DNA of 64,000 bases from Bacteroidota bacterium (GTDB lineage: Bacteria > Bacteroidota > Bacteroidia > Bacteroidales > JAAUTT01). Positions within the stretch are counted from its first letter, which is position 1. Each line of letters starts with the position of its first letter. Shown here piece by piece: positions 3,001 through 64,000 of this stretch. The notes under the pieces were generated by a model. That model saw only the letters and a program-made list of their open reading frames with translations, did not search any database and had not been told where the DNA came from. The position numbers and the translations under genes are program-made. The DNA lies in assembly GCA_023429135.1 (NCBI GenBank), contig JAEYWD010000094.1:66402-130401 (forward strand), given 5' to 3'.

Positions 3001-4845
3001 GTAAAATCGGATCTGATGATTCTGGGCAACCTGCCACGGGTTATTGGTCCGGCTGAAAAATTTACGGTTCCGGTAAATGTTTTTGCATTGAAAGACAACC
3101 TGGGAACCGTTAATGTTGAAATTAAAACCGAAGGTCCGCTGGTGGTTGAGGGTGAAAAATCTGTTCCATTAACATTCATGAAAGCAACCGACCAGGATGT
3201 ATTTTTCAACCTGCAGACAAAAGCTGAAGCAGGCCAGGCTAAAGTTACCATTACTGCAAAATCGGCAACCTATACGTCGAGCTATACAGTCGACCTGATG
3301 GTTCGTCCGTCTTCTGCACGCGAATATTCATCGAAAGACCAGACAGTGTTGGCTGGTCAGAATATCACCATACCTGTTCCGGGTACCGGCATTAAAGGCA
3401 CCAACAGAGCCACCATCACGGTCTCGGCATTTCCTGCAGTAAATTTTTCTCACAGGCTCAACTGGCTTATTCATTATCCTTACGGATGTATCGAGCAAAC
3501 CACATCATCGGTATTCCCGCAGTTGTACATCAAAAAATTCATGCAATATCCTGAGGCATTTTCGAAGTCGATTGATGAAAATATCAATGCTGGTATCCAG
3601 CGACTGAGGAGGTTTCAGCAATTCTCGGGTGGATTCAGCTATTGGCCTTATGGCGAATCGGTTTCGGAATGGGGAACATTGTATGGAGGCCATTTTCTTG
3701 TGGAAGCTAAAAAACTCGGATATTTTGTGGAAGAAGACCTTTACGAGAACTGGTTGAATTATACTGCCGGACAGGCACGTAACAATTCGGGAGATCTTAC
3801 AACCAGAGTCTATCGGGCTTATATTCTTGCTTTGGCCGGAAAACCTGAAACTTCGGAGATGAACCAGTTACGCGAAAGCAAACTGAGTGAGATGTACAAT
3901 GTACAGAAATGGATGCTGGCAGCAGCTTACCATCTTTCGGGCCAGACGGACAAAATAAACGACATTATCCGCAACACCTCCATGGACGTAAAGGATTACT
4001 CGGAATTTGCAGGCACCTATGGCTCCGGCCTCCGTGATAAAGCAATGATTCTGGATGCCCTGGTGGTTTTGAAACGTTACGATCAGGCCGATGCGCTTAC
4101 CAGGGAAATTTCAAAATACATCTCATCCACCACCTGGTATTCAACCCAAACCATTGGCTATTCCTTGCTGGCTATGGGTCGATACATCACCGAGCTTACC
4201 AAAGACCAGAAGGACAACTCCATTGCGGGAACGGTTATTTTTGCCGATGGCACCCGTACCCCAATTTCAACGAACAAAACCTTCTCCCTTGATCTGAAAA
4301 AAGGCTTCGGACAAAATTTACAGGTGGAACTTGCAAACGAGTCCGGCGTGAAAAAAGCGTATGTTAACCTTTCGTGGAACGGTGTTCCGCTTAAAAGTAC
4401 GCTTACCGATGAAAACAAGAATATAACCATGACGGTTAAATGGTACAACGATGAAGGTCAGTCGATTGACCCTTCGGATCTGAAACAGGGTACCACTTTC
4501 TGGGGCCATTTCCATCTGGAGAAAAACAGCGGCGTTCCTGCTGTGGAGGAAATGGCTCTCACCCAGGTGTTGCCCTCGGGTTGGGAAATTGAGAACACCC
4601 GTCTGCTGAACGAATCGTTGCCAACATGGGCATCATCACTTCAACTGAATAAGGAAGAGTATCTCGACATACGCGACGACAGAATAATGTGGTTTTTCGA
4701 CCTGCATAACCAGGCTGACTTTATTGTTAAGCTGAATGCTGTAACCGTGGGCGAGTTCGACCTTCCGGCAACAATTGCCGAAGCCATGTACAACGACAGC
4801 TATAAAGCAGTAAAAACAGGCAAAACAGTAAAGGTGACCAAATAG
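1..4845 (+). CDS. alpha-2-macroglobulin family protein (bacterial A2M, YfhM-like); 5' end lies outside the window
   Basis: Frame 1 is open from nt 1, with no stop before the TTG at 100 that the ORF track uses, so the gene is cut by the window edge. It gives over 1,580 aa of beta-rich MG-domain-like sequence. The thioester motif C-I-E-Q sits in 'YPYGCIEQTTSS' at 3487..3498. pbpC starts 6 nt after the stop, which is the classical A2M/PBP1C pairing. Confidence 0.9.
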   Translation, partial: QTDGLTFTFVSEDIIRDEGTQDFKLTISKGKLDLPEEFEKQFQVTPITEMKVVSITKIEDGRQPKIRLEFSDEFDPEQNLQGMISIKPKTDFKIQKLGTSLILDGDFRFGNEYTVVVENGIRSRWGTKTKEQQASTLRFSDIKPQVEFASGGIILPSGNNFKLQFYTANLKRVHIEIKKVFDNSLYSFIEEEQVSSNRDRKAPFNNAYINRVGVIVHNETFEIGDTKNSWLLSEMDLTEVVKKHDKSLLLIRLNFNPRDVLVDPGTSSDDYIGENGQVFKPLFFSDIGLTVKQTGSELVVYATDLSKCTPMSGVNVELRSSYEDGTRESGETNSDGIVRFSADYIYNAYIQAEKDGDRSIVKFNEMQWNISGFDISGTNADEQPIKAFIYTERGVYRPGDDINIAAIIRNAEEEFPDDHPVTLEMYNPQGKKVYTVTSKKNKKGFFHFPVKTREADPTGSWRATLMIGDSEFEKEIKIETVVPYRLKVNIETAGNQINWTANKLIFDIKSSYLFGNPAANLPVTADLEITGTEKQFAGYDNYSFSNPSLDFKDIQKSIFEGTLDNNGIRHIEWEMPQFTNVPSSLTFKVTAKVLEKGGRPNINWITIPYQPYSNYVGLQAPRYNYVATGSDSDIPFVVLNNDGKPVAGKTIKYRIYRNDSYWWWHYDSKRNLRFKTDNNTVLVKEGIVVSKENQNYIKFLPVEKGQYLVEATDESGTRHSAGVFIDAYPYGGNAGGDKNEGTLSLYADKKKYYVGDEANIQFPAPKEGLILVTIEKGSEILEQNWYKPQKEGEFSLKIPITSDMVPNVYVSVSLMQPHSQTKNDRPIRMFGILPLNVEDRDTRFEFDIITASQYKPKAPFEITVQTKDQEEAQFTVAVVDEGLLALTQFRTPDPWKYFFKKQRLNINTYDLFSEIIAANKGDVFKTFSIGGDEDYRESQLQPEKGKRRFVPVSLFKGPVTTDASGKATIKFNMPEYVGAVRVMVVGARENSFATAEKNVAVKSDLMILGNLPRVIGPAEKFTVPVNVFALKDNLGTVNVEIKTEGPLVVEGEKSVPLTFMKATDQDVFFNLQTKAEAGQAKVTITAKSATYTSSYTVDLMVRPSSAREYSSKDQTVLAGQNITIPVPGTGIKGTNRATITVSAFPAVNFSHRLNWLIHYPYGCIEQTTSSVFPQLYIKKFMQYPEAFSKSIDENINAGIQRLRRFQQFSGGFSYWPYGESVSEWGTLYGGHFLVEAKKLGYFVEEDLYENWLNYTAGQARNNSGDLTTRVYRAYILALAGKPETSEMNQLRESKLSEMYNVQKWMLAAAYHLSGQTDKINDIIRNTSMDVKDYSEFAGTYGSGLRDKAMILDALVVLKRYDQADALTREISKYISSTTWYSTQTIGYSLLAMGRYITELTKDQKDNSIAGTVIFADGTRTPISTNKTFSLDLKKGFGQNLQVELANESGVKKAYVNLSWNGVPLKSTLTDENKNITMTVKWYNDEGQSIDPSDLKQGTTFWGHFHLEKNSGVPAVEEMALTQVLPSGWEIENTRLLNESLPTWASSLQLNKEEYLDIRDDRIMWFFDLHNQADFIVKLNAVTVGEFDLPATIAEAMYNDSYKAVKTGKTVKVTK

Positions 4846-4851
4846 TGCACG

Positions 4852-7164
4852 GTGAGGAAAAAGCTTAAAATTTCGCTTTGGATTTCTTTGGGAGTGCTTG
4901 CCATTTATCTGGCAATACCATTCCCGAAGAATTTCATGAAAATTCAATACAGTAAGGTAATCCGCGACGAGCACGGCAAAAATCTGCGGGTATTTTTGAG
5001 CAACCAGGATCAGTGGTGTTTCCCAACCGAAGACAGCATTGTAATTCCTGATAAATTAAAAACTGCAGTTTTAACATTCGAAGACAATTACTTCCAATGG
5101 CACCCGGGAGTTAATCCGGTTTCGGTGTTAAAGGCAGCCAGGCTCAATTTGAAAAAAGGAAAAGTTGTAAGCGGGGCAAGCACCATTACCATGCAGGTAG
5201 CGCGGATAAGAGGAAGACACAGCCGTACCTGGGGCTATAAACTCATGGAAATGTTTCAGGCTTTAAAAATAGAGTTGCACTATTCCAAGAAATCAATTCT
5301 AAAACTTTACCTCGACCATGCGCCTTATGGCAGTAATATTATCGGGTACAGAGCCGCCTCAGCCCGATATTTCCGAAAAGCCCCCAACGAGCTGAGCTGG
5401 GCCGAGGCATCGTTGCTTGCTGTATTACCCAACGCACCATCGCTGGTGTCACCATTATCCAATCCCGAAATATTGAGAAAAAAGCGGAATGCATTATTAA
5501 AAAGGCTGCTGCAGAAAAAAGAAATAGACTCTACCACCTACCAACTTTCACTGGTCGAGAATATTCCACAAAAAGAATATCCGTTTGAAGTAGTAGCCGG
5601 GCATTTAACGCAGCGGTTAAAAAAGCAAAATTCCGGAGCCATTGTCACCACTACGCTCGATTACAAAATTCAGAAACACCTGGAATACCGTGTCAGTCAG
5701 TACTCGTTTACTCTCCGGCAACAGGGAATTAAAAATGCTGCAGTGCTGGTTGTCGAAACCCAAACCGGGAAAGTAAAAGCTTATGTGGGCTCGCAAAATT
5801 TCTTTGACAGGGAAGGTCTTGGCCAGGTGGACGGGGTGATGGCACGTCGCTCGTCGGGCTCCATTCTTAAACCCTTTCTGTATGCATTGTCCATGGACGA
5901 AGGTATCATTCTACCCCAAACTCAGGTTACCGATATACCCTCCTATTTCGATGCCTTTACCCCTAACAATGCCGACGAAAAATACAATGGCGTAATACCT
6001 TCGAAAGAAGCGCTGGTGCGGTCGCTGAACATTCCGGCAGTGCGACTGCTTAACACTTATGGCGTTAATAAATTCTATTCGTTCCTGACACATGCCGGAG
6101 TATCCACCCTTTTCCGCCAGCCCGACGACTATGGCTTACCTCTTATTCTGGGAGGAGCAGAAGTAACCGTTTGGGACATGGCAACCCTGTACAAAGGACT
6201 TGGCAGCAGAGGAAAGTTTTCGCCCATTCACTATTTGCTGAAAGATTCGGCGAGGTATAGAAACGAACACCGTGATCTGATCAGCTCAGGAGCATGCTTT
6301 CTCACCCTCGAAATGCTCAAAGAGCTGAAACGACCAGGATCAGAGTACTACTGGGAACAATACCAGAACCAGAAACCACTCGCCTGGAAAACAGGAACAA
6401 GCTACGGACATAAGGATGCGTGGGCTGTGGGAGTATCGCCGCAATGGACAATCGCGGTGTGGGTGGGCAATTTCGATGCCGAATCGAACCTGAACCTCTC
6501 CGGTGCTGCCAGTGCAGGGCCGCTGCTCTTCGGCATTTTTAACTATCTGCCCAAAGATCCAAAACTGAAATGGTTCGAAAATATCGAAATGGATTTCAGA
6601 GAAGTTGAGATTTGCCAGGAAACAGGCTTTTTGGCTGGTTCCAACTGCCCGAACAAAACGAGGGTAAATGCCCCGGTTTACATGCTCCCGCTACGCCTGT
6701 GCCCTTACCATGAACAAGTTTTTGTGGATGACCAGGAAAAATATTCCGTTTGCTCTTTCTGCTGGGGCAATGGGCACCATGAAAAAAAAGTGCTGATTTA
6801 TCCGGCAGACATTGCCTATTATCTGAAACAAAGAGGACAGCCGGTAAATAACATACCCGATCATAACCCAGCCTGCGAAAAAATTGCCGGAACCGATCCG
6901 CTGAAAATACTTTATCCTATTGATTCAGCACGAATTTGGATTCCACGCGATTTCGACGGAAATTACCAGAAGGTAATTGCCAAGCTTGCCCACCATCACC
7001 CCGATAAGAAAGTATTTTGGTATCTCGATGGCAATTTCCTGGGAACCTCGTCAGGAAATCATAACAAAGCCATTGAAATAAAAACAGGATGGCACCAGCT
7101 TTCCGTAACCGACGAGGATGGCCATTCATCCAGAATACGATTCTATGGCAGGGAGAAAATTTGA
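4852..7164 (+). CDS. pbpC: penicillin-binding protein 1C (bifunctional glycosyltransferase/transpeptidase-like)
   Basis: 770 aa with a GTG start and an N-terminal membrane anchor ('ISLWISLGVLAIYLAIPF'). GT51 transglycosylase motifs are present ('TFEDNYFQWHPGVNP', 'GASTITMQVAR'), followed by a transpeptidase-like region and a PBP1C-type C-terminal domain. It lies directly downstream of the A2M gene. Confidence 0.9.
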   Translation: MRKKLKISLWISLGVLAIYLAIPFPKNFMKIQYSKVIRDEHGKNLRVFLSNQDQWCFPTEDSIVIPDKLKTAVLTFEDNYFQWHPGVNPVSVLKAARLNLKKGKVVSGASTITMQVARIRGRHSRTWGYKLMEMFQALKIELHYSKKSILKLYLDHAPYGSNIIGYRAASARYFRKAPNELSWAEASLLAVLPNAPSLVSPLSNPEILRKKRNALLKRLLQKKEIDSTTYQLSLVENIPQKEYPFEVVAGHLTQRLKKQNSGAIVTTTLDYKIQKHLEYRVSQYSFTLRQQGIKNAAVLVVETQTGKVKAYVGSQNFFDREGLGQVDGVMARRSSGSILKPFLYALSMDEGIILPQTQVTDIPSYFDAFTPNNADEKYNGVIPSKEALVRSLNIPAVRLLNTYGVNKFYSFLTHAGVSTLFRQPDDYGLPLILGGAEVTVWDMATLYKGLGSRGKFSPIHYLLKDSARYRNEHRDLISSGACFLTLEMLKELKRPGSEYYWEQYQNQKPLAWKTGTSYGHKDAWAVGVSPQWTIAVWVGNFDAESNLNLSGAASAGPLLFGIFNYLPKDPKLKWFENIEMDFREVEICQETGFLAGSNCPNKTRVNAPVYMLPLRLCPYHEQVFVDDQEKYSVCSFCWGNGHHEKKVLIYPADIAYYLKQRGQPVNNIPDHNPACEKIAGTDPLKILYPIDSARIWIPRDFDGNYQKVIAKLAHHHPDKKVFWYLDGNFLGTSSGNHNKAIEIKTGWHQLSVTDEDGHSSRIRFYGREKI

Positions 7165-15617: not shown

Positions 15618-15828
15618 TTATATTTTGGAAATATGAGTTGTATTACAAAGTAACAAAATAATATAAAGGCTCCAACAATAGGACTGTTAAAAAGATGGGA
15701 GCCTCAGCAAAAGTTTTTACGCATGGTTTAAAGACGATTAATATAACTATTCCTAAATTGTTGCGAAGGGAGGCAAATTACTTATAAAACACCATTGAAG
15801 CCATTTACTACTAAGAAGTATTACCCAA

Positions 15829-16100
15829 TCAAAAAAGGTCTGAATGTGTACCGGTACGAACGAGGGTAATTTCATTATTAGTTACAGTAAACCAAATAAT
15901 TAACCAGTCAGGTTCAATATGAGCTTCGTAATGATTTTTGTAATCTCCTTTAAGTAAATGAGTTTTGTATTTAGAAACAGGTAAAGTTCCCGTATCTTCA
16001 AGTATAATGAAAGCTTAGTGAAGTTTTTGGATGTCGTATCTTCTTTTTAGAACTCTTTATAATCTTTCTTGAATTGAGTTGAAAAACTCAGGATATACAT
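15829..16100 (-). pseudogene. decayed YafQ/RelE-family type II toxin (one frameshift and one in-frame TAA)
   Basis: My translation runs as follows. The ATG at 16100 gives 'MYILSFSTQFKKDYKEF', ending at a TAA at 16047..16049. A 1-nt frame shift near 16050..16056 then continues as 'VLKRRYDIQKLH', ending at a TAA at 16015..16017. After that comes 'AFIILEDTGTLPVSKYKTHLLKGDYKNHYEAHIEPDWLIIWFTVTNNEITLVRTGTHSDLF' and a stop at 15829..15831. The C-terminal 'EAHIEPDWLIIW...LVRTGTHSDLF' is the YafQ/RelE signature. The total span of 272 nt is not a multiple of 3. Confidence 0.75.
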
Positions 16101-16104
16101 ATAG

Positions 16105-16311
16105 CTAGGAGTTCAATTTCTTAATTAAATCATCCACGTTCGCCGATTTGATCACCTTTCCGGCTTCAGCATCACGCATCGCCTTCAGAGTAGTTTTATT
16201 AGGAGTTTTGGCTTCCTCAAACCTAATAAAACTTTCCCCCTGAAACTTTTTCAGGAACTCTAAAAGACTCTTGCCTTTCGGGGTACGTTCGTTAATGGTT
16301 ATAGTTGTCAT
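16105..16311 (-). CDS. type II antitoxin (RelB/DinJ-like partner of YafQ-type toxins)
   Basis: 68 aa. The stop is 4 nt upstream of the decayed toxin's ATG. The C-terminal 'PNKTTLKAMRDAEAGKVIKSANVDDLIKKLNS' resembles the antitoxin tails paired with YafQ/RelE toxins in Bacteroidota. Confidence 0.6.
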   Translation of the reverse strand: MTTITINERTPKGKSLLEFLKKFQGESFIRFEEAKTPNKTTLKAMRDAEAGKVIKSANVDDLIKKLNS

Positions 16312-53950: not shown

Positions 53951-54640
53951 ATGACAACCCTGGCCGAAAGAATCATAGCTTTTAACAAGACGCTTGAATT
54001 TACAGGCAGTCTGCCCGAGGGCATAAAAATTCTCAACCCCTTCCGCGACAATGAATATGCGCTGGAGCTGTCATCGGAGTTTTACAGGAAATATTACAAT
54101 GACAATAATCCCCGGTACTTAATCCTGGGCATCAATCCCGGCCGCTTTGGGGCCGGTCTCACCGGAGTTCCCTTTACCGATCCTAAACGACTTGAGGCAA
54201 ACTGTGGCATTTCAAATCGCGGACTAAAAGCACACGAGCCTTCATCAGTATTTATTTACGATATGATTAAAGCTTTTGGCGGAGAAGAAAAGTTTTATGG
54301 CAAATTCTACATACATTCCATTTGTCCGCTGGGTTTTACCTCAACCAACAGCAAAGGCCGGGATGTAAATTATAATTATTACGACAATCCGGAGCTATTA
54401 AAATCGGTTTACAACTTTATCATATGGAATATCAAAACCCAGATTAATATGGGTGTATTTACCAATGTTTGCTTCTTTTTCGGAACGGGCAAAAACCAGC
54501 AGTTTTTACAAAAGTTAAATAAAGAATTTCATTTTTTTGGAGAATTGGTCGCCCTTGAACATCCGCGGTTTATTATGCAGTACAAGGCGAAGGAGAAGGA
54601 GGAATATATACGGAAGTATATTGAAATATTAAATTTTTAA
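53951..54640 (+). CDS. uracil-DNA glycosylase superfamily protein (SMUG2-like)
   Basis: 229 aa. 'YLILGINPGRFGAGLTGVPFTDP' matches UDG motif 1 (GxNPG) and 'LEHPRFIMQ' matches motif 2 (HPS/R). The sub-family call rests on memory of the Bacteroidota SMUG2 group. Confidence 0.55.
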   Translation: MTTLAERIIAFNKTLEFTGSLPEGIKILNPFRDNEYALELSSEFYRKYYNDNNPRYLILGINPGRFGAGLTGVPFTDPKRLEANCGISNRGLKAHEPSSVFIYDMIKAFGGEEKFYGKFYIHSICPLGFTSTNSKGRDVNYNYYDNPELLKSVYNFIIWNIKTQINMGVFTNVCFFFGTGKNQQFLQKLNKEFHFFGELVALEHPRFIMQYKAKEKEEYIRKYIEILNF

Positions 54641-54672
54641 TTAGAGGGAGTTCACTACCTCCCCCTACAAAA

Positions 54673-55320
54673 TTATTTCCCTTTCAGAAATCCCACACTG
54701 AAATCCGATTTTCCAAGAAAGATCACATCTCCCGCATCGCCCATTACCTCGTCCACAAGACCAAATTCGCGGGCTTCCTCAGCATTCATGTATTTGTCGC
54801 GCAAAAAATATTCTTCAATTTCCTTCCAGGTGTGCCCTGATTGTTTCCCCATAATGTGAAATATCTGGGTTTGCAGTCGCTCCTGCTCGCGGGTGGCAAT
54901 GCGTACATCTTCTGTATATCCCTGTGATCCGCCTCCTGTAGGATGCATGTGAATGGTAGCATGCGGCAGTGCAAAACGTTTTCCCTTCTCGCCCGAACTC
55001 AGCAGAAATGTCCCCATGCTGCCGGTAAACCCAACAGCGTAAGTCGATACCGGAGCCGACAGCATTTTCATGGTGTCGTAAATGGCCAGTCCGGCATAAA
55101 CCACACCGCCCGGACTGTGGATATACAAATGAATGGGTTGTTTGGGGCTAACACTGTTCAGGTAAAGCAGTTGTGCCACTACCAGGTTTGCCACTGTGTC
55201 GTTAATAGGACCACCGAGAAAGATGATCCGCTCTTTCAGCAGCAAACTGTAGATGTCGTATGCACGCTCTCCGCCACCGGAGCTATCGATTACCATTGGT
55301 ACTAAGCTTGAATGTATCAT
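54673..55320 (-). CDS. clpP: ATP-dependent Clp protease proteolytic subunit (divergent, orphan copy)
   Basis: 215 aa containing '[38 protein letters not shown]'. The catalytic Ser is in '[11 protein letters not shown]', the His in 'IHMHP' and the Asp in 'FLRDKYM'. No clpX or tig neighbour is present. Confidence 0.8.
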
Positions 55321-55466: not shown

Positions 55467-55739
55467 TTAGTATTTTCCGAATATCTCCATCATCCTTCTT
55501 CGAAAATCTTTCTTATCAGGATTATTGAACAGTTGCTGATGCAAGCTCTCCAATTCCTCTTTCATTTTTTTACGGTGGTATATCTTCACAAGCCAATAGG
55601 TTTTCTTTTGAAGTTCTACATCGCTCCGTAGACCGGTGTTGACTTTCAATCGTGAAGCGAAAAGCATCCGGTTCCAGGGACTAAGCTTTCCGGCAAGATA
55701 TTGCTCAATAGTTTGAGTATCATTCAACGAAGTCTTCAT
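55467..55739 (-). CDS. small hypothetical protein, possible cognate partner of the upstream sigma factor
   Basis: 90 aa. Its start overlaps the sigma-factor gene by 20 nt. 'IEQYLAGKLSP' resembles the N-termini of small anti-sigma-like proteins in Bacteroidota. The function is an inference. Confidence 0.45.
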   Translation of the reverse strand: MKTSLNDTQTIEQYLAGKLSPWNRMLFASRLKVNTGLRSDVELQKKTYWLVKIYHRKKMKEELESLHQQLFNNPDKKDFRRRMMEIFGKY

Positions 55740-56268
55740 AAGCCAGCGATTTTTGTTTTACAATTTCCCTTACTTTTTCGAGACATTTATACTTTTGCAC
55801 ACTTGCCGAGTGCTCGTTTGCAAATCCCAATGACTTTACAATTGTTCTGATACGCTGCTGCTGATAGTAAAAAGCGCGTAACAGATCCAGACACCTCTTG
55901 CCGGCACGTTCCAGATACATCAGCAGTTTTTGAGTCTTTACAGGCACTTCGTAATCCTCGGGAATGCAAATTTGCAGTTCTGTTGCCGATAGAGAAACCA
56001 TTTCTGCTCCCACTCTGAATTTACGCATCCAGAGATGTTTTGCAATGCCAAGAATGTAGCCATTGCGGTTTAACAGATGTTCCCGTTGGTTCATTTCCAT
56101 GTAAATAACGAGGGCATCGTGAAATATATCTTTAGCGTCGTCGAGGTCTCCTCCCATTTTCTGAACAAACCGGGCCACCACCGGAAAGCACTGCTCGTAC
56201 AAAGCTTCCATACTGCTGCTGAAAGCCATTGTCTCCTTTCCTGTTTTTTTAATCTCCAGCGTTTCCAT
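55720..56268 (-). CDS. sigma-70 family (ECF-like) RNA polymerase sigma factor
   Basis: 182 aa. Region 2 ('DAKDIFHDALVIYME') is followed by region 4 ('CLDLLRAFYYQQQRIRTIVKSLGFANEHSASVQKYKCLEKVR'). Confidence 0.7.
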   Translation of the reverse strand: METLEIKKTGKETMAFSSSMEALYEQCFPVVARFVQKMGGDLDDAKDIFHDALVIYMEMNQREHLLNRNGYILGIAKHLWMRKFRVGAEMVSLSATELQICIPEDYEVPVKTQKLLMYLERAGKRCLDLLRAFYYQQQRIRTIVKSLGFANEHSASVQKYKCLEKVREIVKQKSLAYEDFVE

Positions 56269-56445
56269 AATCGTCCTTTTTAATATGTGCCGGCAAGCAT
56301 TAAAATATCACCAATAAAAACATATTTTTTTCAAAATTAGTTTAAAATAGTTTTCCGGTTAGCATCTTACCAATAGAACAATCCCTTGTTGAAAATTTTA
56401 ATTTTTATAATTTAGCACCATTTGGCAACGACATACATTCTTAGC

Positions 56446-57111
56446 ATGAAACAACTGTTCCTGTTCTTTCTCATTTTTCTAGCCACTACAGCTTTCTCCC
56501 AGAACTGGAAAGAATACATTATCGACGATAATCTCACACTTACTTTCCCCGAAAATTACACCATTACCGATACTATGAACCAGAAAGTAATTATGGCTCA
56601 GCTTGATTATGGACTGGTAATGGTTACTGCTATGGAAAACAAAGGGGAATATGAAATAGCTGTAACCGATGAGAACGATCTTAGAGATGAATACAAAGGG
56701 CTCCGTAAAGGAATGCTCCGGTCGGCAAAGGGGAAATTAATAGTCGAAGGACCGTTAAAAAAGGACGGACTGTTATTCTGGAATTTCTCATATTCCGCCC
56801 GAATGGGCGAAGCTAAGCAGAGCCGCTATTGCCGGATCCTGCTGTTGAATAAACATATCTATACAATCAATTTCTGGGAAGTGAACGACAAATCGGGCGA
56901 AATGGCTCCGCTACGCGAAAAGTTTTTTTTGTCGGTTGTGGTTCCGAAAGGGATTGGATTGCAAAATCAATTGAATGTGATCGATGAGAAAACCGCCTCC
57001 GATCGCGTGGGCAAACTGATCAGCAATTTAGCAGTTAAGCTGCTATTCGGAACCATCGTAATTTTACTGGTAGTTTGGGTTTGGCGAAAGGTCAAAAAAC
57101 AAGCAAAATAA
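56446..57111 (+). CDS. hypothetical protein with N-terminal signal and C-terminal TM anchor
   Basis: The start is set at the ATG at 56446 ('MKQLFLFFLIFLATTAFSQ'). The C-terminus is 'LLFGTIVILLVVWVW' followed by a basic tail. Confidence 0.5.
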   Translation: MKQLFLFFLIFLATTAFSQNWKEYIIDDNLTLTFPENYTITDTMNQKVIMAQLDYGLVMVTAMENKGEYEIAVTDENDLRDEYKGLRKGMLRSAKGKLIVEGPLKKDGLLFWNFSYSARMGEAKQSRYCRILLLNKHIYTINFWEVNDKSGEMAPLREKFFLSVVVPKGIGLQNQLNVIDEKTASDRVGKLISNLAVKLLFGTIVILLVVWVWRKVKKQAK

Positions 57112-57318
57112 ATTATAACCCCTCGGGAAGACTACTGAACTTCATTTCCTTGCTCATGAATTTTAAAGGATGAGTTCAAAATCATTTATTGAAATTTTGT
57201 TCGTAAGTGCCACAACCGGACGTGAAGTTTCCTAAAAGTATTGAAATCCCTTTTTATCGAGAGTAATTTTATAGAATAAAAGTCGGTCTTTAGGTCATCA
57301 ATTTCCAAAACCTATTTT

Positions 57319-57741
57319 ATGAAAACTAAAATTCTATTTGTTACTTTTCTGTTGGCTGCATTTGCATGTGGCATAACTGCCCAAAGCCTTCAAAAAGGAA
57401 ATTTGGTTGGAGCGCACACTATGAAACTCACATTAAAGCCTGGTGTAACCGAAAAACAGTTCATCGACTTTTTTAACGAAAAATACAAACCGGCCTTTAA
57501 CAAAGCTATACCCGAATGGCAGGTATTCCTGGTAAAAAGCATCAGGGGAGAAGTTCCCAAAGATACCTATGGATTAATTTATGTAATTAAATCGGTTCAG
57601 GACCGTGATAAATTTTATAATACTGACGGTACTGAATCATCATTTGGAAAAACTGTAAGGGAGAAGCTTAAACCCATTTTCGAGGAGTTTGACAAGATTT
57701 GTACTTTTGAAACAGTTTATACTGATTGGGAAGTATTATAA
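57319..57741 (+). CDS. small secreted hypothetical protein
   Basis: 140 aa with the signal 'MKTKILFVTFLLAAFACGITAQ'. A hairpin, CCCGGA-N8-TCCGGG at 57768..57787, follows the stop. Confidence 0.5.
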   Translation: MKTKILFVTFLLAAFACGITAQSLQKGNLVGAHTMKLTLKPGVTEKQFIDFFNEKYKPAFNKAIPEWQVFLVKSIRGEVPKDTYGLIYVIKSVQDRDKFYNTDGTESSFGKTVREKLKPIFEEFDKICTFETVYTDWEVL

Positions 57742-57947
57742 TTGTTGCTGTAAGTTGTTTTTAGGAGCCCGGAGGATTTCTTCCGGGTTTCTTGTCCGAT
57801 GTTTCCACCAGGAGTATTTAATAACCTTAAGAATGCCATTTTAACCCTGGAAATATCAGGATGCATAATTTGCGAAAAATTTAGGATAGTTTTGAACAAA
57901 ATATTTCATAATTGGTTTACAACAAACCAATATTAACCCCAACCAAA

Positions 57948-58712
57948 ATGAGCCTCAGTTACCTTGAATTTATCAAGCAACATTCTCTGGATGCCCGAAT
58001 TGGCATTAACCCGGAGATTGGACAATTTGTGCTCGACAACAAAGTGAAAACCCTTTTTGGATACTTCCCTTTTGGGTATTATCTGTTAGATTACCATACC
58101 CAGAAATTCGAATTCATAAACAATTCGGAATCACTGCTTGGATACACCATGGACTACTTCCTATTGGGAGGCTTGCCTGCATCCCTTAAAAATTTTCATC
58201 CCGACGACTTTGTAATCTTCTCGGAAAAATTGTTTCCCGATATTATTAAGTTTTTTTCCGAATTAAGGTCCGACGACAGGGACTACTACCGTGTAACGTA
58301 TAATTACCGGTATAAAAAGAAGGATAGAACCTATATCCACCTGCAGCAACATTCAACTTTTACCGATTTTAACCTGTTAAATCTCCCGACCCGGAATTTT
58401 GCTTTAATAAATGACATTTCGGCCTGCAAGCGCGATAACGCGCTGGTGCTTACCATTACCCGTGTTAAGGAAGGAAAGGAAATGTTAGTTTTACAAAAAC
58501 GGTTTAACCACGAAAAACCTTCGATTTTCACTGACCGCGAAAAAGAAATTCTGGATTTAGCAATGAAAGGTTACACCGGAAAGGAAATAGCCGGCAAATT
58601 GTTTATTAGCCTCAACACTGTACGAAACCACAAACAAAACATGATGGAAAAAACCAACACCCCTAACATTGCAAGCCTGATAGATTACGCTTTTAAAAGC
58701 GAAGTAGTTTAA
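57948..58712 (+). CDS. LuxR-family transcriptional regulator with N-terminal PAS-like sensor domain
   Basis: The ATG at 57948 is preferred over the TTG at 57912. The C-terminal LuxR HTH is 'FTDREKEILDLAMKGYTGKEIAGKLFISLNTVRNHKQNMMEKT'. The N-terminal roughly 190 aa has the size of a PAS/GAF-type sensor. Confidence 0.7.
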   Translation: MSLSYLEFIKQHSLDARIGINPEIGQFVLDNKVKTLFGYFPFGYYLLDYHTQKFEFINNSESLLGYTMDYFLLGGLPASLKNFHPDDFVIFSEKLFPDIIKFFSELRSDDRDYYRVTYNYRYKKKDRTYIHLQQHSTFTDFNLLNLPTRNFALINDISACKRDNALVLTITRVKEGKEMLVLQKRFNHEKPSIFTDREKEILDLAMKGYTGKEIAGKLFISLNTVRNHKQNMMEKTNTPNIASLIDYAFKSEVV

Positions 58713-58984
58713 CTATTTACTTTCCGGGAGACAGGTAAACCTTAGTTACTGTAAACCAGGGAGGCTTATCGTGGCTTCATATTGGGCATTTGGTATCCAA
58801 ATAAACAGCCGTTTCAGGTAATGAGCAGGTTGGTAGCAAAAGATTGTAAGTGAGTTGTGATGAGAAGTAAAGATAGTACAAAAGGACTATTTACCTCCCT
58901 TCTTTTTAAAGGTAAATTTATGCTATTAATTACTCTCACTACATTCAAAACAAATCAAACTCACCTGAATCTATTTAAAACCTT

Positions 58985-61900
58985 ATGCTCCGAACTATTC
59001 AATATAATTGTCAAAGTGGCGAGCCTTTCAAAATTGACGAAACTGCGGATTTGTTAATTATCCGAACCTTAAAATATACTGATCCAGATTATATCCTGAA
59101 AACAATTCCTGGAATAAAGGCCTTCTGGAGAAATATCAGAAAACATGACCAATTTCCTGATTCTTCAGTTTTTTTATATCAAATTGTCGAAACCACCGAA
59201 CCTTCCTTACTTAGAGATGAGCTAAAGAACATTATAGAAAAATATAACCACCCCAACATATGTTATGCAGGCACAGTGATGCGTTATGCCGATTCCGGCG
59301 TTTACCAGATATATACCGGGAATCTCTTTATAAAATTTCAGGATAGCGCGTCCACACATTCCATAAACAGTATTATCCGTAATCACAAACTGGATGTTAA
59401 AAGAGATCTTCCCTTTGCAAGGAACTCCTTTTTTGTTGCGCCTCACGATGATATAGGAAGGGACATCTTTGATCTTAGTATGGAATTGCTCCGGTACAAA
59501 GATGTATCACACTGTCATCCGGAATTAGTTGTAAAAAGGAAATATGTTTTCAGGAACATCCCGGTAGATACAAATACTGCATCCAAAATTCCTCAAAATT
59601 GGGTTTTTGATAAGATAAACCTTAATAAAGCCTGGAAATATACGAGAGGTGAGAATATCCGTATTTGTGTAATTGATGACGGACTAGACTTTGGCCATCC
59701 TGCGTTCTCAAGCTCAGGTAAAATTGCGGCATACAGAGACATGCTGGATTCTACCAAAACCAAAAAACCTGTGCATCACACGGGGGAAATGCATGGCACA
59801 GCTTGCGCAGGAATAGCATGTTCAAATGATTTTCGTGCTCCAGGCATTGCCCCGGGGGCACAACTTATGCCCGTAAGATCGGTTGGTTTGGGGTCAGTAA
59901 CCGAATCGGAAGCCTTTTATTGGGCAGTACAAAATAAAGCGGATATTATTTCCTGCAGTTGGGGACCTCCTGATGGAGATTTTACATCTAACAAAAAGAA
60001 TAATTTTGTTTATCCCATTCCCGATCATACTGATTTTGCTATCCGTTACGCTGCCACAAGAGGCCGGAATGGAAAAGGATGTCTGATTTTCTTTGCTGCA
60101 GGCAATGGGAATGAGAGCATTAAACTGGATAAGTATGCTTCGCATCCTTATGTTATGGCAATAGGAGCCTCAAATATGAATGATGAAAAAACAAGCTACA
60201 GTGATTACGACAGTCCTATTTTTTGTACATTCCCAAGTGGCGAATATGTTAACGACGGAAAAGGATGGAAACAGATTAACGGAGTAACGGTACCTGACCC
60301 AACAGGTAAAGATGGTTATGACGATACTGATATTTTTAAACTTTTCAGCGGTACTTCGGCATCCTGTCCCGGAATGGCCGGAACCGCAGCATTACTATTA
60401 TCTCTTCGTCCGGATTTAACACGCCTTCAGGCAAAAGATATTCTTTCAAAATCATGCAAACCTCTGGGTAAATCTATTACCTCAAATTTAAGCACTTATG
60501 ATGACCAATTTGGGTTTGGTTTAATCCAAACAGATCTAGTAATTCAAAACGCTCTTAAATTTAATAAAACAGCTATGGATAACGAAAGCAAAACACAGAC
60601 TAAGGGGTATTCCCTTCACATTGGTATTAATGAGGTATCTGCGGAATATTACGGAGATATTGTGCCAAAACTTTACGGTTGCATTAAGGATATGCAGAAA
60701 ATGAAATCTTTAGCCGTAAAGTTGGGATATCAAACCAAAACATTGGAAAATGAAGCTGCAACCAGTAGCAGAATTCTTGACGAAATAAAGTCACTTTCCG
60801 AAACGGCTAAACCGGGCGATATGGTCCTCATAACCTATGCAGGTCATGGTGCACCTATTATTGATGAAAACAATGATGAGCCCGACGGATATGATGAAGC
60901 GTGGGTTACTTATGATGGTTTTCTGATTGATGATAAAATTTATCAATCGTTTCAGGAATTTAAAAAAGGTGTAAAAATTCTTGTGGTTACTGATTCGTGC
61001 CATAATGGAACGGTTACGAGACTAGTAAATTTTAATAAGTATAAAAAAAGATCCCTAAGAGGAGATATCAGGTACAGGTTCCTTGAGCTGGATTTGGTAA
61101 ACCAAATTCTTAGCAGGAATGGTCAAACGCAGCGGTCGTTAAAAATTACGGAAAAGAAAAAGGACAAAAGCTCTAAAACAGGGCAGATAGAACTGAATGT
61201 GCCTGTTAAGTTATTGGCAGCCTGTGCTGATGACCAGGTTGCAGGAGAAAATCAAAATGGAGGGCTTTTCACATATCACCTGATTGAAACATTCAATAAT
61301 TTTAACAATTCGATCACCTATACAAGTCTGATTGATAACGTCAAAACCAGGATGCCCTCTAGTCAGCAACCTCAAATAACTGACGAAGGATTAACTGACA
61401 ATGAATTTGATGCTTTAATGGCCTTTTCGATAGAAGCATCGAGGAAAGAACATGAAATACTGCAAGCAGAAATACCTGTTGTTGAATTAAAAAGATCTTC
61501 AATAATTGCGGTGGAAACCGATGAAATGTTTCTTAATTTAAGTTCTTCGTCGAGCCTCCGGTCTACCGGTCCTGAAAATTCAGATGTACTGAAAGTGGTA
61601 GATGGAAAAGTTGACGGAGAAAGTATAGCTGGTGAAACAGATTGGGATAAAGCATACAATCTATATTTTTCGAATCAGGATAAAAACATTGAATTTATTG
61701 AAGCTTATTTACCTCCTGAATCCTACGAAGATAGATTTTATGCAGGAAGGGACACTGAATTAAAGGAATCGGATGAATTTGACTGGCTAAAAACATATCC
61801 TCCATACAGCGATATCCACAAAAATGTTCCATTTGACTGGCACCTCGACAATGAGCATAGTCAGCTTAAAGCTGCCAGGGAAATAGTCTATCCTGAATTA

Positions 61901-64000
61901 ATAACCGGAGATACTTACGATAAAAGTAAGCCTAACGTATATATTGCACATATCGATACCGGAATTCTGGAAGACCATCCTTCGAAGCCCGAAAACCTGA
62001 TTCTGAAAGTTACTGCCGATAATGATACAATAATTACAGGAGCTGAGGATAAAGATGTTATTACCCCGGGAGAACAGCAGGGACATGGTAATGCCACGCT
62101 GGCTATTCTAGCCGGTGGAAAATTAATGGGAACACAAACTGGTGGCGAATTTTCCGGATATTTTGGAGCTATCCCTTTTGCCAAAGTTGTTACCATTAAA
62201 GTTAGCGATTATGTTGTGTTACTTAGCGGAAAAAGAGTTGCTGAGGCAATTGAGTATGCTATTACTCTTGGAGTGGATGTTATAACCATGAGTATGGCAG
62301 GTTTACCTTCCAAAGCAATGGCCAAAGCTGTAAATAAAGCATATGAAGCCGGCATTGTTATTTGTAGTGCTGCCAGTAACAGTTGGGTTAAAGGGTTAAA
62401 AAAGGCCGCACCCGACTGTATGCTATATCCGGCAAGATTCGACCGAACCATAGGGGTGGTGGGAGCAACCTATACTCAGGTGCCGTATGTTTATAAACTT
62501 CATAATACCGAAACCCGAACCGCAGGTGGCTGTTATATGCAAATGAGTTATGGCCCCAGAGCTGCAATGAATACTGCCATTGCCGGGTACACTCCAAATA
62601 TTGCATGGTTTGAAGTTGATATGAAAAAAGAAAAAGGTAAATTGCCATTCGTTAAAAACGGAGGAGGAACATCAAGCGCTACACCACAGGTTGCGGCGGC
62701 GGCAGCTCTATATATTCAAAAATACCGGGACGAAATTGAAAAAATAGCTGGAAAAGACAAATGGAAAAAGGTTGAAATTGTAAAAGCAGCTCTTTTTAAA
62801 TCAGCTCATAAATTGAACGATTATTCCGAATTTTATGGTAACGGAATTCTAAGAGCCAAGAATGCCCTCATGATAGAACCTAAGGATATTGAACTTCCTA
62901 AAGAAAAGGCACCTGAGGCAAAAGATGAAGGATCTTTCCTCAAAAGCTTATTTTTTGTTTTCAGAAGAAGTTTAATTGACAATCAGCACGACCAGAAGTT
63001 GACTCAAATGATGAACACAGAATTGATGCAACTGATGCATCGTGAGCCTGAATTATTCCCGCTGTTAAAAAATTACAATTTTTCGGACCCGAAAGAGGAA
63101 CTTACTTATGATGACAGGATACTGCTGATTGATGTTGTTCAGAGATCCAAACTCGCATCTTCTTTTTTGAAGAGTAACATTGTAACGAAAAAAATGCCCG
63201 ATTCTCCTGCTATTACAAGAGGAGTAACCATCGATTCGTTTCACATTAACAGCCTGGAACTGGAATCGCTATACGGAAATTATAACCTCAGAAGCTCAGG
63301 TATTAAATATGTAATTAAATCATTTAGAAAAAATATCGGGGAAGAGAATTTCAATCTGGATCTATCTGTTGATGAAATAGAACTAGAAATAAACGGTCCT
63401 TTAACCAGGGACGCGAATACCTCACTCAACCTGATTACGAATTTCACGAAAAATGACCGTCAGTGTGCAATCCTAGTTGAAAAGGAACTGGATGGAGAGA
63501 CTGTTGCCGAGTGGGTGTTTGACCAACCAATCCAAAATCAGACCTCCCGGGATTTCAGTTTTAACCGGAACGGGCGTGATGGAAATCAGTTTACAATTGA
63601 TTTTAGTGATCACCTCCCGAATACTAACCGAAATCTGTTCTCCAAAATCGGAAAAGTATTAATCAAAGTTATCAGTTGGTTGTCGCCGCAGGATGAGCAA
63701 GCAGGCAATTTTAAAGAATGGCTCGCCCGAATGGGAAAATCCAGATACATGGTAATGGGATATGATTTGGAAAGTTCAACAAATAGATGGATCAATCTGG
63801 ATAAAAAGGCCGAAATGTGGGATGCCATCTCAAAAGACAGTAAACCCGTTTTACTCCTGTTCCCGGGGCTATTCAGAGATGTAACCGAGAACTTCACCGA
63901 TCTTCTTTCCAATTCTGCAATTCTGGAGGCTTTAAAAAATAAGTACTCCCGTTATGTAATTGGATTCAATATGCCCGATATAATCGCAGGTATTGAAGAA
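58985..64000 (+). CDS. leaderless multi-protease fusion protein (propeptide-like N-terminus / peptidase S8 / caspase-like peptidase C14 / peptidase S8 / unknown C-terminal region); 3' end lies outside the window
   Basis: This ORF is absent from the supplied track. Frame 2 is open from the ATG at 58985 (in-frame TAA at 58976..58978) to base 64000, giving 1,672 codons. S8 domain 1 has D 'CVIDDG' (59675), H 'HGTACAG' (59792), N 'AAGNGN' and S 'GTSASCPG' (60356). The C14 domain has H 'YAGHG' (60845) and C 'DSCHNG' (60998). S8 domain 2 has D 'AHIDTG' (61955), H 'GHGNAT' (62084) and S 'GGGTSSATPQVAAAAA' (62672). All these codons are in the same frame. There is no N-terminal hydrophobic signal. Confidence 0.85.
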   Translation, partial: MLRTIQYNCQSGEPFKIDETADLLIIRTLKYTDPDYILKTIPGIKAFWRNIRKHDQFPDSSVFLYQIVETTEPSLLRDELKNIIEKYNHPNICYAGTVMRYADSGVYQIYTGNLFIKFQDSASTHSINSIIRNHKLDVKRDLPFARNSFFVAPHDDIGRDIFDLSMELLRYKDVSHCHPELVVKRKYVFRNIPVDTNTASKIPQNWVFDKINLNKAWKYTRGENIRICVIDDGLDFGHPAFSSSGKIAAYRDMLDSTKTKKPVHHTGEMHGTACAGIACSNDFRAPGIAPGAQLMPVRSVGLGSVTESEAFYWAVQNKADIISCSWGPPDGDFTSNKKNNFVYPIPDHTDFAIRYAATRGRNGKGCLIFFAAGNGNESIKLDKYASHPYVMAIGASNMNDEKTSYSDYDSPIFCTFPSGEYVNDGKGWKQINGVTVPDPTGKDGYDDTDIFKLFSGTSASCPGMAGTAALLLSLRPDLTRLQAKDILSKSCKPLGKSITSNLSTYDDQFGFGLIQTDLVIQNALKFNKTAMDNESKTQTKGYSLHIGINEVSAEYYGDIVPKLYGCIKDMQKMKSLAVKLGYQTKTLENEAATSSRILDEIKSLSETAKPGDMVLITYAGHGAPIIDENNDEPDGYDEAWVTYDGFLIDDKIYQSFQEFKKGVKILVVTDSCHNGTVTRLVNFNKYKKRSLRGDIRYRFLELDLVNQILSRNGQTQRSLKITEKKKDKSSKTGQIELNVPVKLLAACADDQVAGENQNGGLFTYHLIETFNNFNNSITYTSLIDNVKTRMPSSQQPQITDEGLTDNEFDALMAFSIEASRKEHEILQAEIPVVELKRSSIIAVETDEMFLNLSSSSSLRSTGPENSDVLKVVDGKVDGESIAGETDWDKAYNLYFSNQDKNIEFIEAYLPPESYEDRFYAGRDTELKESDEFDWLKTYPPYSDIHKNVPFDWHLDNEHSQLKAAREIVYPELITGDTYDKSKPNVYIAHIDTGILEDHPSKPENLILKVTADNDTIITGAEDKDVITPGEQQGHGNATLAILAGGKLMGTQTGGEFSGYFGAIPFAKVVTIKVSDYVVLLSGKRVAEAIEYAITLGVDVITMSMAGLPSKAMAKAVNKAYEAGIVICSAASNSWVKGLKKAAPDCMLYPARFDRTIGVVGATYTQVPYVYKLHNTETRTAGGCYMQMSYGPRAAMNTAIAGYTPNIAWFEVDMKKEKGKLPFVKNGGGTSSATPQVAAAAALYIQKYRDEIEKIAGKDKWKKVEIVKAALFKSAHKLNDYSEFYGNGILRAKNALMIEPKDIELPKEKAPEAKDEGSFLKSLFFVFRRSLIDNQHDQKLTQMMNTELMQLMHREPELFPLLKNYNFSDPKEELTYDDRILLIDVVQRSKLASSFLKSNIVTKKMPDSPAITRGVTIDSFHINSLELESLYGNYNLRSSGIKYVIKSFRKNIGEENFNLDLSVDEIELEINGPLTRDANTSLNLITNFTKNDRQCAILVEKELDGETVAEWVFDQPIQNQTSRDFSFNRNGRDGNQFTIDFSDHLPNTNRNLFSKIGKVLIKVISWLSPQDEQAGNFKEWLARMGKSRYMVMGYDLESSTNRWINLDKKAEMWDAISKDSKPVLLLFPGLFRDVTENFTDLLSNSAILEALKNKYSRYVIGFNMPDIIAGIEE

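Follow-up and report, generated by a model that had tools for sequence, protein, structure and literature searches.

In the type II metacaspase AtMC4, Lys225 is locked between the catalytic His and Cys, where it is gripped by the acidic pocket residues Asp137 and Asp352 and serves both as a self-inhibitor and as the first cleavage site; the residues beside it pair with the core in a β-sheet, and Ca2+ sets off a cut at Lys225 that is followed by further cuts in the linker (PDB 6W8R/6W8S/6W8T). In the structure of GSU0716 of Geobacter sulfurreducens (3BIJ), a linker peptide, IRYRA, is reported to lie over Cys135, Gly85 and Asp133 and to block the catalytic cleft (PMC3881575; the numbering used here, His84, Gly85, Asp133 and Cys135, was checked against the residues named in that paper), and we found no published report on the biochemistry of this protein. 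Orthocaspases as a class are described (PMC6426788) as cleaving after positively charged residues, and one of them, MaOC1 of Microcystis aeruginosa, autoprocesses and requires cleavage of p20 from the chain for its activity (PMC5756287). Action on a partner protein is known from LcCaspase, which cuts the α/β-hydrolase LcHydrolase at two conserved R↓G sites and thereby causes cell death (Evans et al. 2025, bioRxiv, PMC12642450), and caspase-like and subtilisin "releasing peptidases", sometimes in arrays, have been noted upstream of C-terminal toxin domains, with autoproteolytic release as their proposed role (Zhang et al. 2012, PMC3482391). Here we consider a caspase-like module encoded at 60605-61380 (+) of a 64,000-nucleotide stretch of contig JAEYWD010000094.1 from a Bacteroidota bacterium (the window). 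The module is a metacaspase-type protease lying between two subtilases in a giant protein that ends in a lipase-like hydrolase, and the linker between its p20- and p10-like parts probably carries a built-in switch, Arg698.

The segment is not a separate gene; it encodes residues 541-799 of a single open reading frame (ORF). An earlier note, made from the letters of the window, had read it as a caspase-like module with an intact His/Cys dyad, and translating the segment returned all of the peptide strings quoted there (GYSLHIGINEV, GCIKDMQKM, YAGHGAP, DEPDGYDEAWVTYDG, KILVVTDSCHNG, KYKKRSLRGDIRYR, KITEKKKDKSSK and VKLLAACADDQVAGENQNGGLFTYHLIE), while the residue numbers used for H621, C672, S458 and S1230 agree exactly with an ATG at 58985. 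The caspase fold is borne out by profile, solved structures and model alike. Peptidase_C14 (PF00656) matches residues 555-805, scoring 84.2 bits (cut-off 21.4; E 1.5e-23) and covering profile positions 11-230 of 233. In a phmmer search of the PDB the best solved relative is GSU0716 (3BIJ; E 2e-45 over 277 residues, which span the entire module and with it the insert that follows the catalytic Cys), with yeast, trypanosome and plant metacaspases next (E 1e-10 to 1e-5). Modelling of residues 536-815 with AlphaFold2 from 63 sequences gave a pLDDT of 91.2 and a pTM of 0.90. Foldseek placed 3BIJ first among PDB structures (TM 0.84-0.89), followed by the type II metacaspases AtMC9 and AtMC4, the type I metacaspases, and then caspase-6, caspase-7 and MALT1; TM values were 0.6-0.75 to metacaspases and ~0.55 to caspases and MALT1.

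Alignment to PF00656 and to the structures also puts the proposed dyad at the catalytic positions, H621 (YAGHG) and C672 (DSCHNG) pairing with H84 and C135 of GSU0716 and with the catalytic His and Cys of Yca1 and AtMC4. In an alignment of 76 full-length homologues, to which all counts out of 76 refer, H621, G622, C566, D569, D670 and C672 are invariant (76/76), and position 755 is Glu in 74 sequences and Asp in two. The acidic S1 pocket pattern of metacaspases is present, with the Asp of G-C-x-x-D, an Asp at position -2 from the catalytic Cys and an acidic p10 residue. We take C566/D569 to be the G-C-x-x-D pocket motif equivalent to Cys92/Asp95 of TbMCA2, and D670 and E755 would correspond by motif to Asp137 and Asp352 of AtMC4. 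The p10 motif A-C-x-D-x-Q-x-A-x-E is conserved, and the alignment with 3BIJ extends through residue 277 of that chain. Because the dyad and the acidic S1-pocket positions of metacaspases have been kept, and by analogy with the Arg bound in 3BIJ, the module is expected to cleave after Arg or Lys. The invariance of the dyad and of these pocket residues led us to reject both chance similarity to caspases and a pseudo-enzyme.

The module is a metacaspase-type cysteine protease (MEROPS C14) of the GSU0716-like "bacterial type I metacaspase" or orthocaspase branch, and on its sequence it is almost certainly of the active type. The Pro-rich or zinc-finger prodomain found at the N-terminus of eukaryotic type I enzymes is absent, subtilase 1 directly preceding the module, which fits the prodomain-less "bacterial type I" metacaspases described in PMC3734836. 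Type II metacaspases have a p20-p10 linker of ~150 amino acids and are restricted to the green lineage (PMC5756287), whereas the linker here has 67 amino acids (48-73 in the family) and the host is bacterial. The caspase-like domain itself is of a kind already described; the fusion of four enzymes is the unusual part.

The earlier note had further located a Lys/Arg-rich stretch directly after the catalytic Cys, assigned it to the p20-p10 linker and seen in it an activation switch. The placement proved exact, the basic insert sitting between the strand of the catalytic Cys and the p10-like part, and its composition is as described, with 17 Lys or Arg in 67 residues and a net charge of +11. It is the single most basic region of the protein: across 1,918 amino acids, only windows starting at residues 659-679, which overlap or adjoin it, match or exceed its basicity (binomial P = 0.0015 for the single window). 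The homologues also have a basic linker: Lys and Arg make up a median 0.18 of its residues, compared with 0.11 in whole proteins, and its median net charge is +5.

The idea of a switch survived for one conserved arginine and failed for the Lys/Arg-rich runs that had been emphasised. The KYKKRS... run (687-693) falls in columns gapped in 24-54 of the 76 homologues and the KDKSSK run (728-733) in columns gapped in 51-74, and residues 675-692 and 721-739 were modelled with low confidence (pLDDT from below 50 up to 76). Because most of these columns are gaps and model confidence is low, the runs were rejected as a conserved switch; they are lineage-specific loops and at most secondary cleavage sites. 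Between the low-confidence loops lies IRYR (695-698), identical to the corresponding linker motif of 3BIJ and modelled as a short strand or β-bridge (pLDDT ~94), with two confident helices after it (702-711 and 716-720, pLDDT ~94-96) and a conserved hydrophobic helix pattern at 704-712. Its last residue, Arg698, is Arg in 75 homologues and Lys in one; Arg679, nearer to the catalytic Cys, is Arg in 72 and Lys in four. The linker Arg is also kept in GSU0716 (IRYR-A), in a caspase on a Bacillus toyonensis plasmid (ITYR-S), in a caspase of Sinorhizobium meliloti pSymA (APR-A) and in six C14-DUF7379 fusions of a more distant branch. Since the IRYRA peptide of 3BIJ is reported to block the cleft and Arg698 is conserved, a built-in pseudo-substrate or self-cleavage switch is well supported by homology. 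We propose Arg698, within the conserved IRYR core, as the switch residue rather than any residue of the lineage-specific Lys-rich loops, and we consider it rather likely that this arginine acts as such.

Stand-alone relatives of the caspase module are common on plasmids. In the S. meliloti pSymA locus (L087, 1947-5840), the GSU0716-like caspase module forms the C-terminal part of a 638-amino acid protein encoded directly after a papain-like C1 peptidase gene, another multi-protease arrangement around GSU0716-like caspases.

Two other accounts of the linker were weighed. In one, the fused subtilases cut it, so that a one-way intramolecular cascade would run from S8 through the metacaspase to the hydrolase, the metacaspase remaining a passive zymogen until clipped. 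The catalytic triads and oxyanion Asn of both subtilases are invariant (76/76), exposed low-confidence Lys/Arg-rich loops lie on either side of the conserved linker core, and the pro-region of subtilase 1 ends in HPELVVKRK, the same place being basic in S8 relatives that have no caspase, which hints at autoprocessing after basic residues. However, stand-alone GSU0716-like caspases with no adjacent subtilase keep the linker Arg, as do the C14-DUF7379 fusions, which have no S8 domain; the Arg is therefore no adaptation to a fused subtilase. In addition, the homologous segment of 3BIJ occupies the caspase's own cleft (PMC3881575), and we regard cutting by the subtilases as improbable. In the other account, the linker is a permanent, uncleaved lid, with Arg698 as a reversible plug that is displaced by ligand, Ca2+ or substrate, and the enzyme undergoes no proteolytic maturation. 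The ordered and conserved linker core, with its IRYR strand and two helices, exceeds what a cleavage loop needs; type I metacaspases can work as monomers without separation of p20 and p10 (PMC3734836); and wild-type AtMC4 crystals without Ca2+ retain an uncleaved Lys225. Nevertheless, MaOC1 and AtMC4 both require cleavage for activity, and where a substrate-like strand with a strictly conserved basic residue lies in a pocket specific for Arg or Lys, that residue usually marks a scissile site. We judge an uncut lid to be about as improbable as cutting by the subtilases.

The complete protein (P0001), found by database search on a 248-kb metagenome contig, has 1,918 amino acids, is 100% identical to the part encoded in the window and has the Pfam domain order pro-S8, C14, S8, DUF7379. 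A stop codon at 58976-58978 stands two codons 5′ of the ATG, and no signal peptide was detected by N-terminal hydrophobicity in the ORF or in any of 85 homologues, the highest Kyte-Doolittle value over 12 residues within the first 45 residues being 1.81 among those 85. Without a signal peptide, P0001 is therefore likely to be a cytoplasmic multi-hydrolase. The upstream stop and the absence of signal peptides throughout the family also led us to reject a digestive enzyme secreted for the use of polysaccharides or proteins as part of a utilisation locus. The N-terminal region and DUF7379 gave no significant match to PDB sequences.

Both S8 stretches combined match Peptidase_S8 with an E of 1.6e-58. 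The terminal motif of residues 1-221 suggests that they act as a propeptide, and the C-terminal part of the 806-984 spacer is possibly the pro-segment of subtilase 2. Residues 1-525 recur, in co-linear order, in many further S8 fusions without a signal peptide. In other phyla this pro-subtilase unit (58985-60560) is joined to other C-terminal domains, namely tyrosinase/hemocyanin, Peptidase_M15 or Amidase_2 peptidoglycan hydrolases and BNR/sortilin propellers (P0086-P0120), and the pro-regions of these proteins all end in HP[ED]L...[KR]..[RK]. Judged by their architecture, the pro-S8 fusions look like a modular superfamily that pairs a protease with a destructive enzyme. The features of the giant ORF are collected in the table.

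Features of the giant ORF encoding the metacaspase module (window coordinates; residues numbered from the ATG)
Feature	Residues	Coordinates	Strand	Remarks
Giant ORF	1-1672 of P0001	58985..64000	+	ATG at 58985; continues past the window end at 64000
Pro-region of subtilase 1	1-221	58985..59647	+	ends in conserved HPELVVKRK; no Pfam or PDB match
Subtilase 1 (Peptidase_S8)	222-511	59648..60517	+	D231, H270, N374, S458
Metacaspase-type p20-like part	541-675	60605..61009	+	C566, D569 (S1 pocket), H621 (60845-60847), D670, C672 (60998-61000)
p20-p10 linker	676-742	61010..61210	+	most basic region of the protein; includes R679
IRYR	695-698	61067..61078	+	Arg698, proposed pseudo-substrate or P1 self-cleavage residue
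p10-like part	743-805	61211..61399	+	acidic S1-pocket residue E755; aligned with 3BIJ
Spacer	806-984	61400..61936	+	poorly conserved except for its C-terminal part, consensus WDKAY...I.FVEPD
Subtilase 2 (Peptidase_S8)	~985-1290	61937..62854	+	D991, H1034, N1132, S1230
Spacer and N-terminal extension of the hydrolase unit	1291-1622	62855..63850	+	R1475 (63407-63409), R1549 (63629-63631)
Start of DUF7379 (PF24096)		63851..64000	+	Pfam match 1623-1799 of P0001, E 2.2e-23; mostly past the window

The C-terminal DUF7379 unit, taken to end near residue 1900, models as a lipase-like α/β-hydrolase domain. A model of residues 1584-1918 has this fold (pLDDT 88), and its best Foldseek matches are true lipases of Staphylococcus, Geobacillus, Burkholderia and Pseudomonas (E ~1e-7, TM ~0.45-0.5). 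Residues Ser1696, Asp1842 and His1877 are nearly invariant in the 76 homologues and present in 61 of 61 distant DUF7379 relatives. Past the window, residues 1758-1776 are strongly hydrophobic (Kyte-Doolittle mean of 2.06 over 19 residues) and belong to a helical "lid" insertion that was modelled with lower confidence; this segment may be a membrane-binding hairpin. In the literature library searched, no papers on DUF7379 were found. A word-indexed homologue search with this domain gave one protein, and an exhaustive HMMER search, used in its place, gave 7,152 clusters, in which the sampled proteins include fusions of Peptidase_C14 to DUF7379 and fusions of DUF7379 to a second LCAT-like hydrolase and CHAT, with or without TPR-S. 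As judged by domain architecture, DUF7379 is repeatedly tied to clan-CD proteases because of this recurrent fusion to C14 or CHAT.

The homologous hydrolase unit reaches ~150 residues upstream of the Pfam boundary of DUF7379, and in this otherwise variable, Ser/Gly-rich stretch two isolated arginines are conserved. R1475 is Arg in 70 of 76 homologues and is followed by Ser or Gly. R1549 is Arg in 73 and Lys in two, with Gly as the next residue in 62; at the same position the distant DUF7379 proteins have Arg in 59 of 61, followed by Gly in 52 of 61. A T-R-S/G motif ~35-45 residues from the N-terminus was also seen in several of eleven stand-alone DUF7379 proteins of ~500 amino acids, which have no signal peptide. 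The T/S-R-G/S motifs that precede DUF7379 (63407-63409 and 63629-63634 here; P0139-P0243) may be shared protease-recognition sites.

We suggest the following mechanism. In the resting protein the linker would fold back on the metacaspase and place Arg698 of IRYR in the S1 pocket as a pseudo-substrate, blocking the cleft as Lys225 does in AtMC4. The enzyme would become active when it cuts itself after Arg698 or when the linker is displaced. The acidic loop DENNDEPDGYDE after His621 seems to resemble the acidic loop of metacaspases, and binding of Ca2+ to it could assist in activation. The freed Arg-specific protease would then cut after R1475 and R1549, just upstream of the hydrolase, and these cuts would release or activate a membrane-attacking, lipase-like effector. 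The subtilases may serve as upstream activators, as parallel effectors or as self-processing enzymes. Taken as a whole, a metacaspase module with a plugged linker that sits in a multi-hydrolase and licenses its hydrolase seems to us a reasonably probable explanation. Cleavage at R1475 and R1549 was proposed because LcCaspase cuts LcHydrolase at R↓G sites, and licensing of the hydrolase by the metacaspase, which rests on this analogy, is the weakest step of the proposal and is put forward tentatively, as a doubtful one. Extended to the whole chain, the proposal would describe a nested-zymogen proteolytic cascade, comprising a pro-subtilase, an Arg-plugged metacaspase, a second subtilase and a lipase-like hydrolase masked by its N-terminal extension, which would fire in sequence in the cell and end in destruction of the membrane; such an initiator-executioner-effector death pathway would need no separate sensor and might be gated by the PA-IL-like partner described below. 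We regard this full version as unlikely.

Several observations weigh against the proposed mechanism. The pro-regions of the subtilase clade end with basic residues, and the subtilases might themselves cut after Arg or Lys. The position of the AtMC4 pocket residue Ser84 is occupied here by Ala619, which is Ala in 65 of 76 homologues and Ser in 11. In P0001 itself R1475 precedes Asp and R1549 precedes Asn (R1549-N1550), not Gly. DUF7379 is likened to LcHydrolase by the description of the latter as a lipase-like α/β-hydrolase. No protease gene lies near P0139, the sole stand-alone DUF7379 protein whose locus was checked, and the R-G motif may for that reason have a structural role instead of being cut. 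Searches with Pfam, NCBIfam and PADLOC recognised no sensor domain in the protein, and defence-island context is not conserved across loci.

The full architecture occurs in ~85 clusters, almost all from Bacteroidota, including Dyadobacter, Polaribacter, Maribacter, Brumimicrobium, Saprospiraceae and Cytophagales. The neighbouring genes differ from species to species, save for a small PA-IL-like partner (132-162 amino acids, similarity below threshold) encoded on the same strand, which adjoins the giant gene in 9 of the ~17 loci examined. At the present locus the partner is a 141-amino acid PA-IL/LecA-like protein without a signal peptide (Pfam E 0.0018, below threshold), encoded at 15711-16136 (+) of locus L001, which corresponds to 64695-65120 in window numbering; its gene overlaps the stop of the giant gene by 46 nucleotides, and it might act as a regulator, a sensor, a substrate or an immunity protein.

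The partner bears on a further explanation, in which the protein would be an exported toxin, either polymorphic-toxin-like or a cargo of a contractile injection system, with the caspase and subtilases freeing a C-terminal lipase toxin and the small adjacent protein acting as immunity factor or chaperone. Besides the partner's frequent adjacency, caspase-like and subtilisin processing peptidases are listed upstream of toxin domains, including those of the PVC pathway in Bacteroidetes (PMC3482391), a signal peptide is unnecessary for injection-system cargo, and the homologue in Maribacter (L085) lies ~4 kb from tube, sheath and Pvc16 genes. Against this, the window, L001 and the remaining family loci examined have no tube or sheath genes, neither Pfam nor a comparison of the N-terminal region with PDB sequences revealed an N-terminal trafficking domain, the ~85 homologues share a constant C-terminal domain, not a polymorphic one, and the small partner stands upstream of the giant gene in some loci and downstream in others and is missing from roughly half of them. 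An exported toxin is in our judgement quite improbable. In the Maribacter sp. locus (L085, 1-3302 and 13006-15666) the T4 gp19-like tube, sheath and Pvc16_N genes lie on the upstream side and are oriented away from the giant gene, and a KAP-family NTPase gene is downstream; neither the injection-system genes nor the NTPase were seen in the other loci. Two loci, one from a soil metagenome contig (L083, 12988-19253) and one from Dyadobacter sp. SG02 (L084, 12665-17349), share a downstream gene for a dCache_1 protein of 1,290-1,353 amino acids and another for a peptidoglycan hydrolase (Amidase_2 or CHAP, with PG_binding_1).

A match to a known defence system was sought and rejected, PADLOC returning only its generic "caspase" and "subtilase" models and a weak IetS model; NCBIfam gave only sub-threshold mycosin-like and similar matches. 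A gasdermin-type system was likewise rejected, with no gasdermin gene in the window or the examined loci and the ~140-amino acid PA-IL-like protein as the sole conserved neighbour, and so was a phage origin, for which 50,697 phage records held one weak partial match. Elsewhere the window reads as ordinary Bacteroidota chromosome and encodes glycoside hydrolases, an ECF sigma/FecR/SusC set, an α2-macroglobulin and penicillin-binding protein (PBP) pair, and ClpP.

This setting, with its polysaccharide-utilisation genes, and the failure of PADLOC to recognise a system beyond the generic models are what would be expected of a non-lethal housekeeping or regulatory protease complex, active for example in protein quality control or developmental processing, with a metabolic hydrolase. 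Metacaspases do have roles other than in death; MaOC1, for example, cleaves an antitoxin (PMC7935541). However, the patchy distribution of the family and the variation in neighbourhood from locus to locus are untypical of housekeeping genes, and four hydrolase centres that propeptide-like segments and a linker plug seem to hold back look more like destructive machinery under restraint. We hold a housekeeping role to be very unlikely and prefer the plugged metacaspase within a multi-hydrolase set out above.

Among the other genes of the window, 100-7164 (+) encodes a bacterial α2-macroglobulin (1,581 amino acids) and, immediately after it, a PBP1c-type penicillin-binding protein (770 amino acids), a gene pair that recurs in bacteria. 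At 53951-55320 a lone ClpP gene (54673-55320, -) lies beside a uracil-DNA glycosylase family gene, and no ClpX gene was identified among the window ORFs examined. Upstream of the giant gene, 55720-58712 encodes a divergent, weakly sigma-70-like protein (182 amino acids), a LuxR/GerE-type regulator (266 amino acids) and two proteins without a Pfam match (229 and 140 amino acids); of these four, the regulator alone has a counterpart elsewhere, a weak one in a single other locus.

Taken by itself, the caspase-like module contributes little that is new, being a further GSU0716-like member whose mechanism has already been outlined for AtMC4, for MaOC1 and in the 3BIJ structure, and self-inhibition by the linker is familiar from plant metacaspases. 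What matters is its context, a Bacteroidota family that brings two subtilases, an Arg-type metacaspase and a lipase-like hydrolase together in one protein. All four catalytic centres are conserved in the fusion family, and three isolated arginines (R698, R1475 and R1549) are conserved in otherwise variable loops. If these arginines are cleavage sites, the fusion would offer a compact model of how bacterial caspase relatives license death effectors, and it would assign a role to DUF7379, a large domain family without a function that recurs with caspase and CHAT proteases. Were the cascade reading to prove true, this would be the first subtilase-metacaspase cascade described in bacteria, with DUF7379 as a protease-licensed lipase. 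The fusion is in any case a compact, testable system and a functional lead for DUF7379.

Among described proteins, GSU0716 resembles the module most closely, with 31-32% identity over its whole length, dyad motifs of the YSGHG/DSCHSG type, a linker of ~50-70 amino acids with an identical IRYR, and no N-terminal prodomain; a linker of "about 50 aa" has been noted for a bacterial type I metacaspase (Choi & Berges 2013, PMC3734836). GSU0716 is, however, a stand-alone protein of 285 amino acids, whereas the module is an internal domain between subtilases and its linker has additional Lys-rich insertions. AtMC4, which is within the top 20 Foldseek matches, shares the caspase-like core and the acidic S1 pocket, and differs in its ~150-amino acid linker domain, in its low identity to the module (15-18%) and in a dependence on Ca2+ that has been shown for AtMC4. 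MaOC1 is likewise a prokaryotic C14 enzyme with a His-Cys dyad and conserved specificity-pocket residues, but it is a single-domain protein with no recognisable p10, in contrast to the clear p10-like part and the fusion to three other hydrolases found here. Polymorphic toxins also carry peptidase domains upstream of a C-terminal toxin-like domain; the present protein differs from them in having neither a trafficking domain nor a polymorphic C-terminus nor a consistent downstream immunity gene, and its link to contractile injection systems is limited to one locus. Fusions of a subtilase to a caspase are not mentioned in the Asplund-Samuelsson 2012 survey of prokaryotic caspase architectures. 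The LcCaspase-LcHydrolase pair joins a caspase-type protease to a lipase-like α/β-hydrolase, and in P0001 R1475 and R1549 precede such a hydrolase. That pair consists of two genes with sensor domains, from Actinobacteria and Pseudomonadota, whereas here a single polypeptide from Bacteroidota has two additional subtilases, no recognised sensor and a different spacing of the sites. The fusion of pro-S8, C14, S8 and lipase-like hydrolase is best described as a variant of these recently recognised protease-effector modules.

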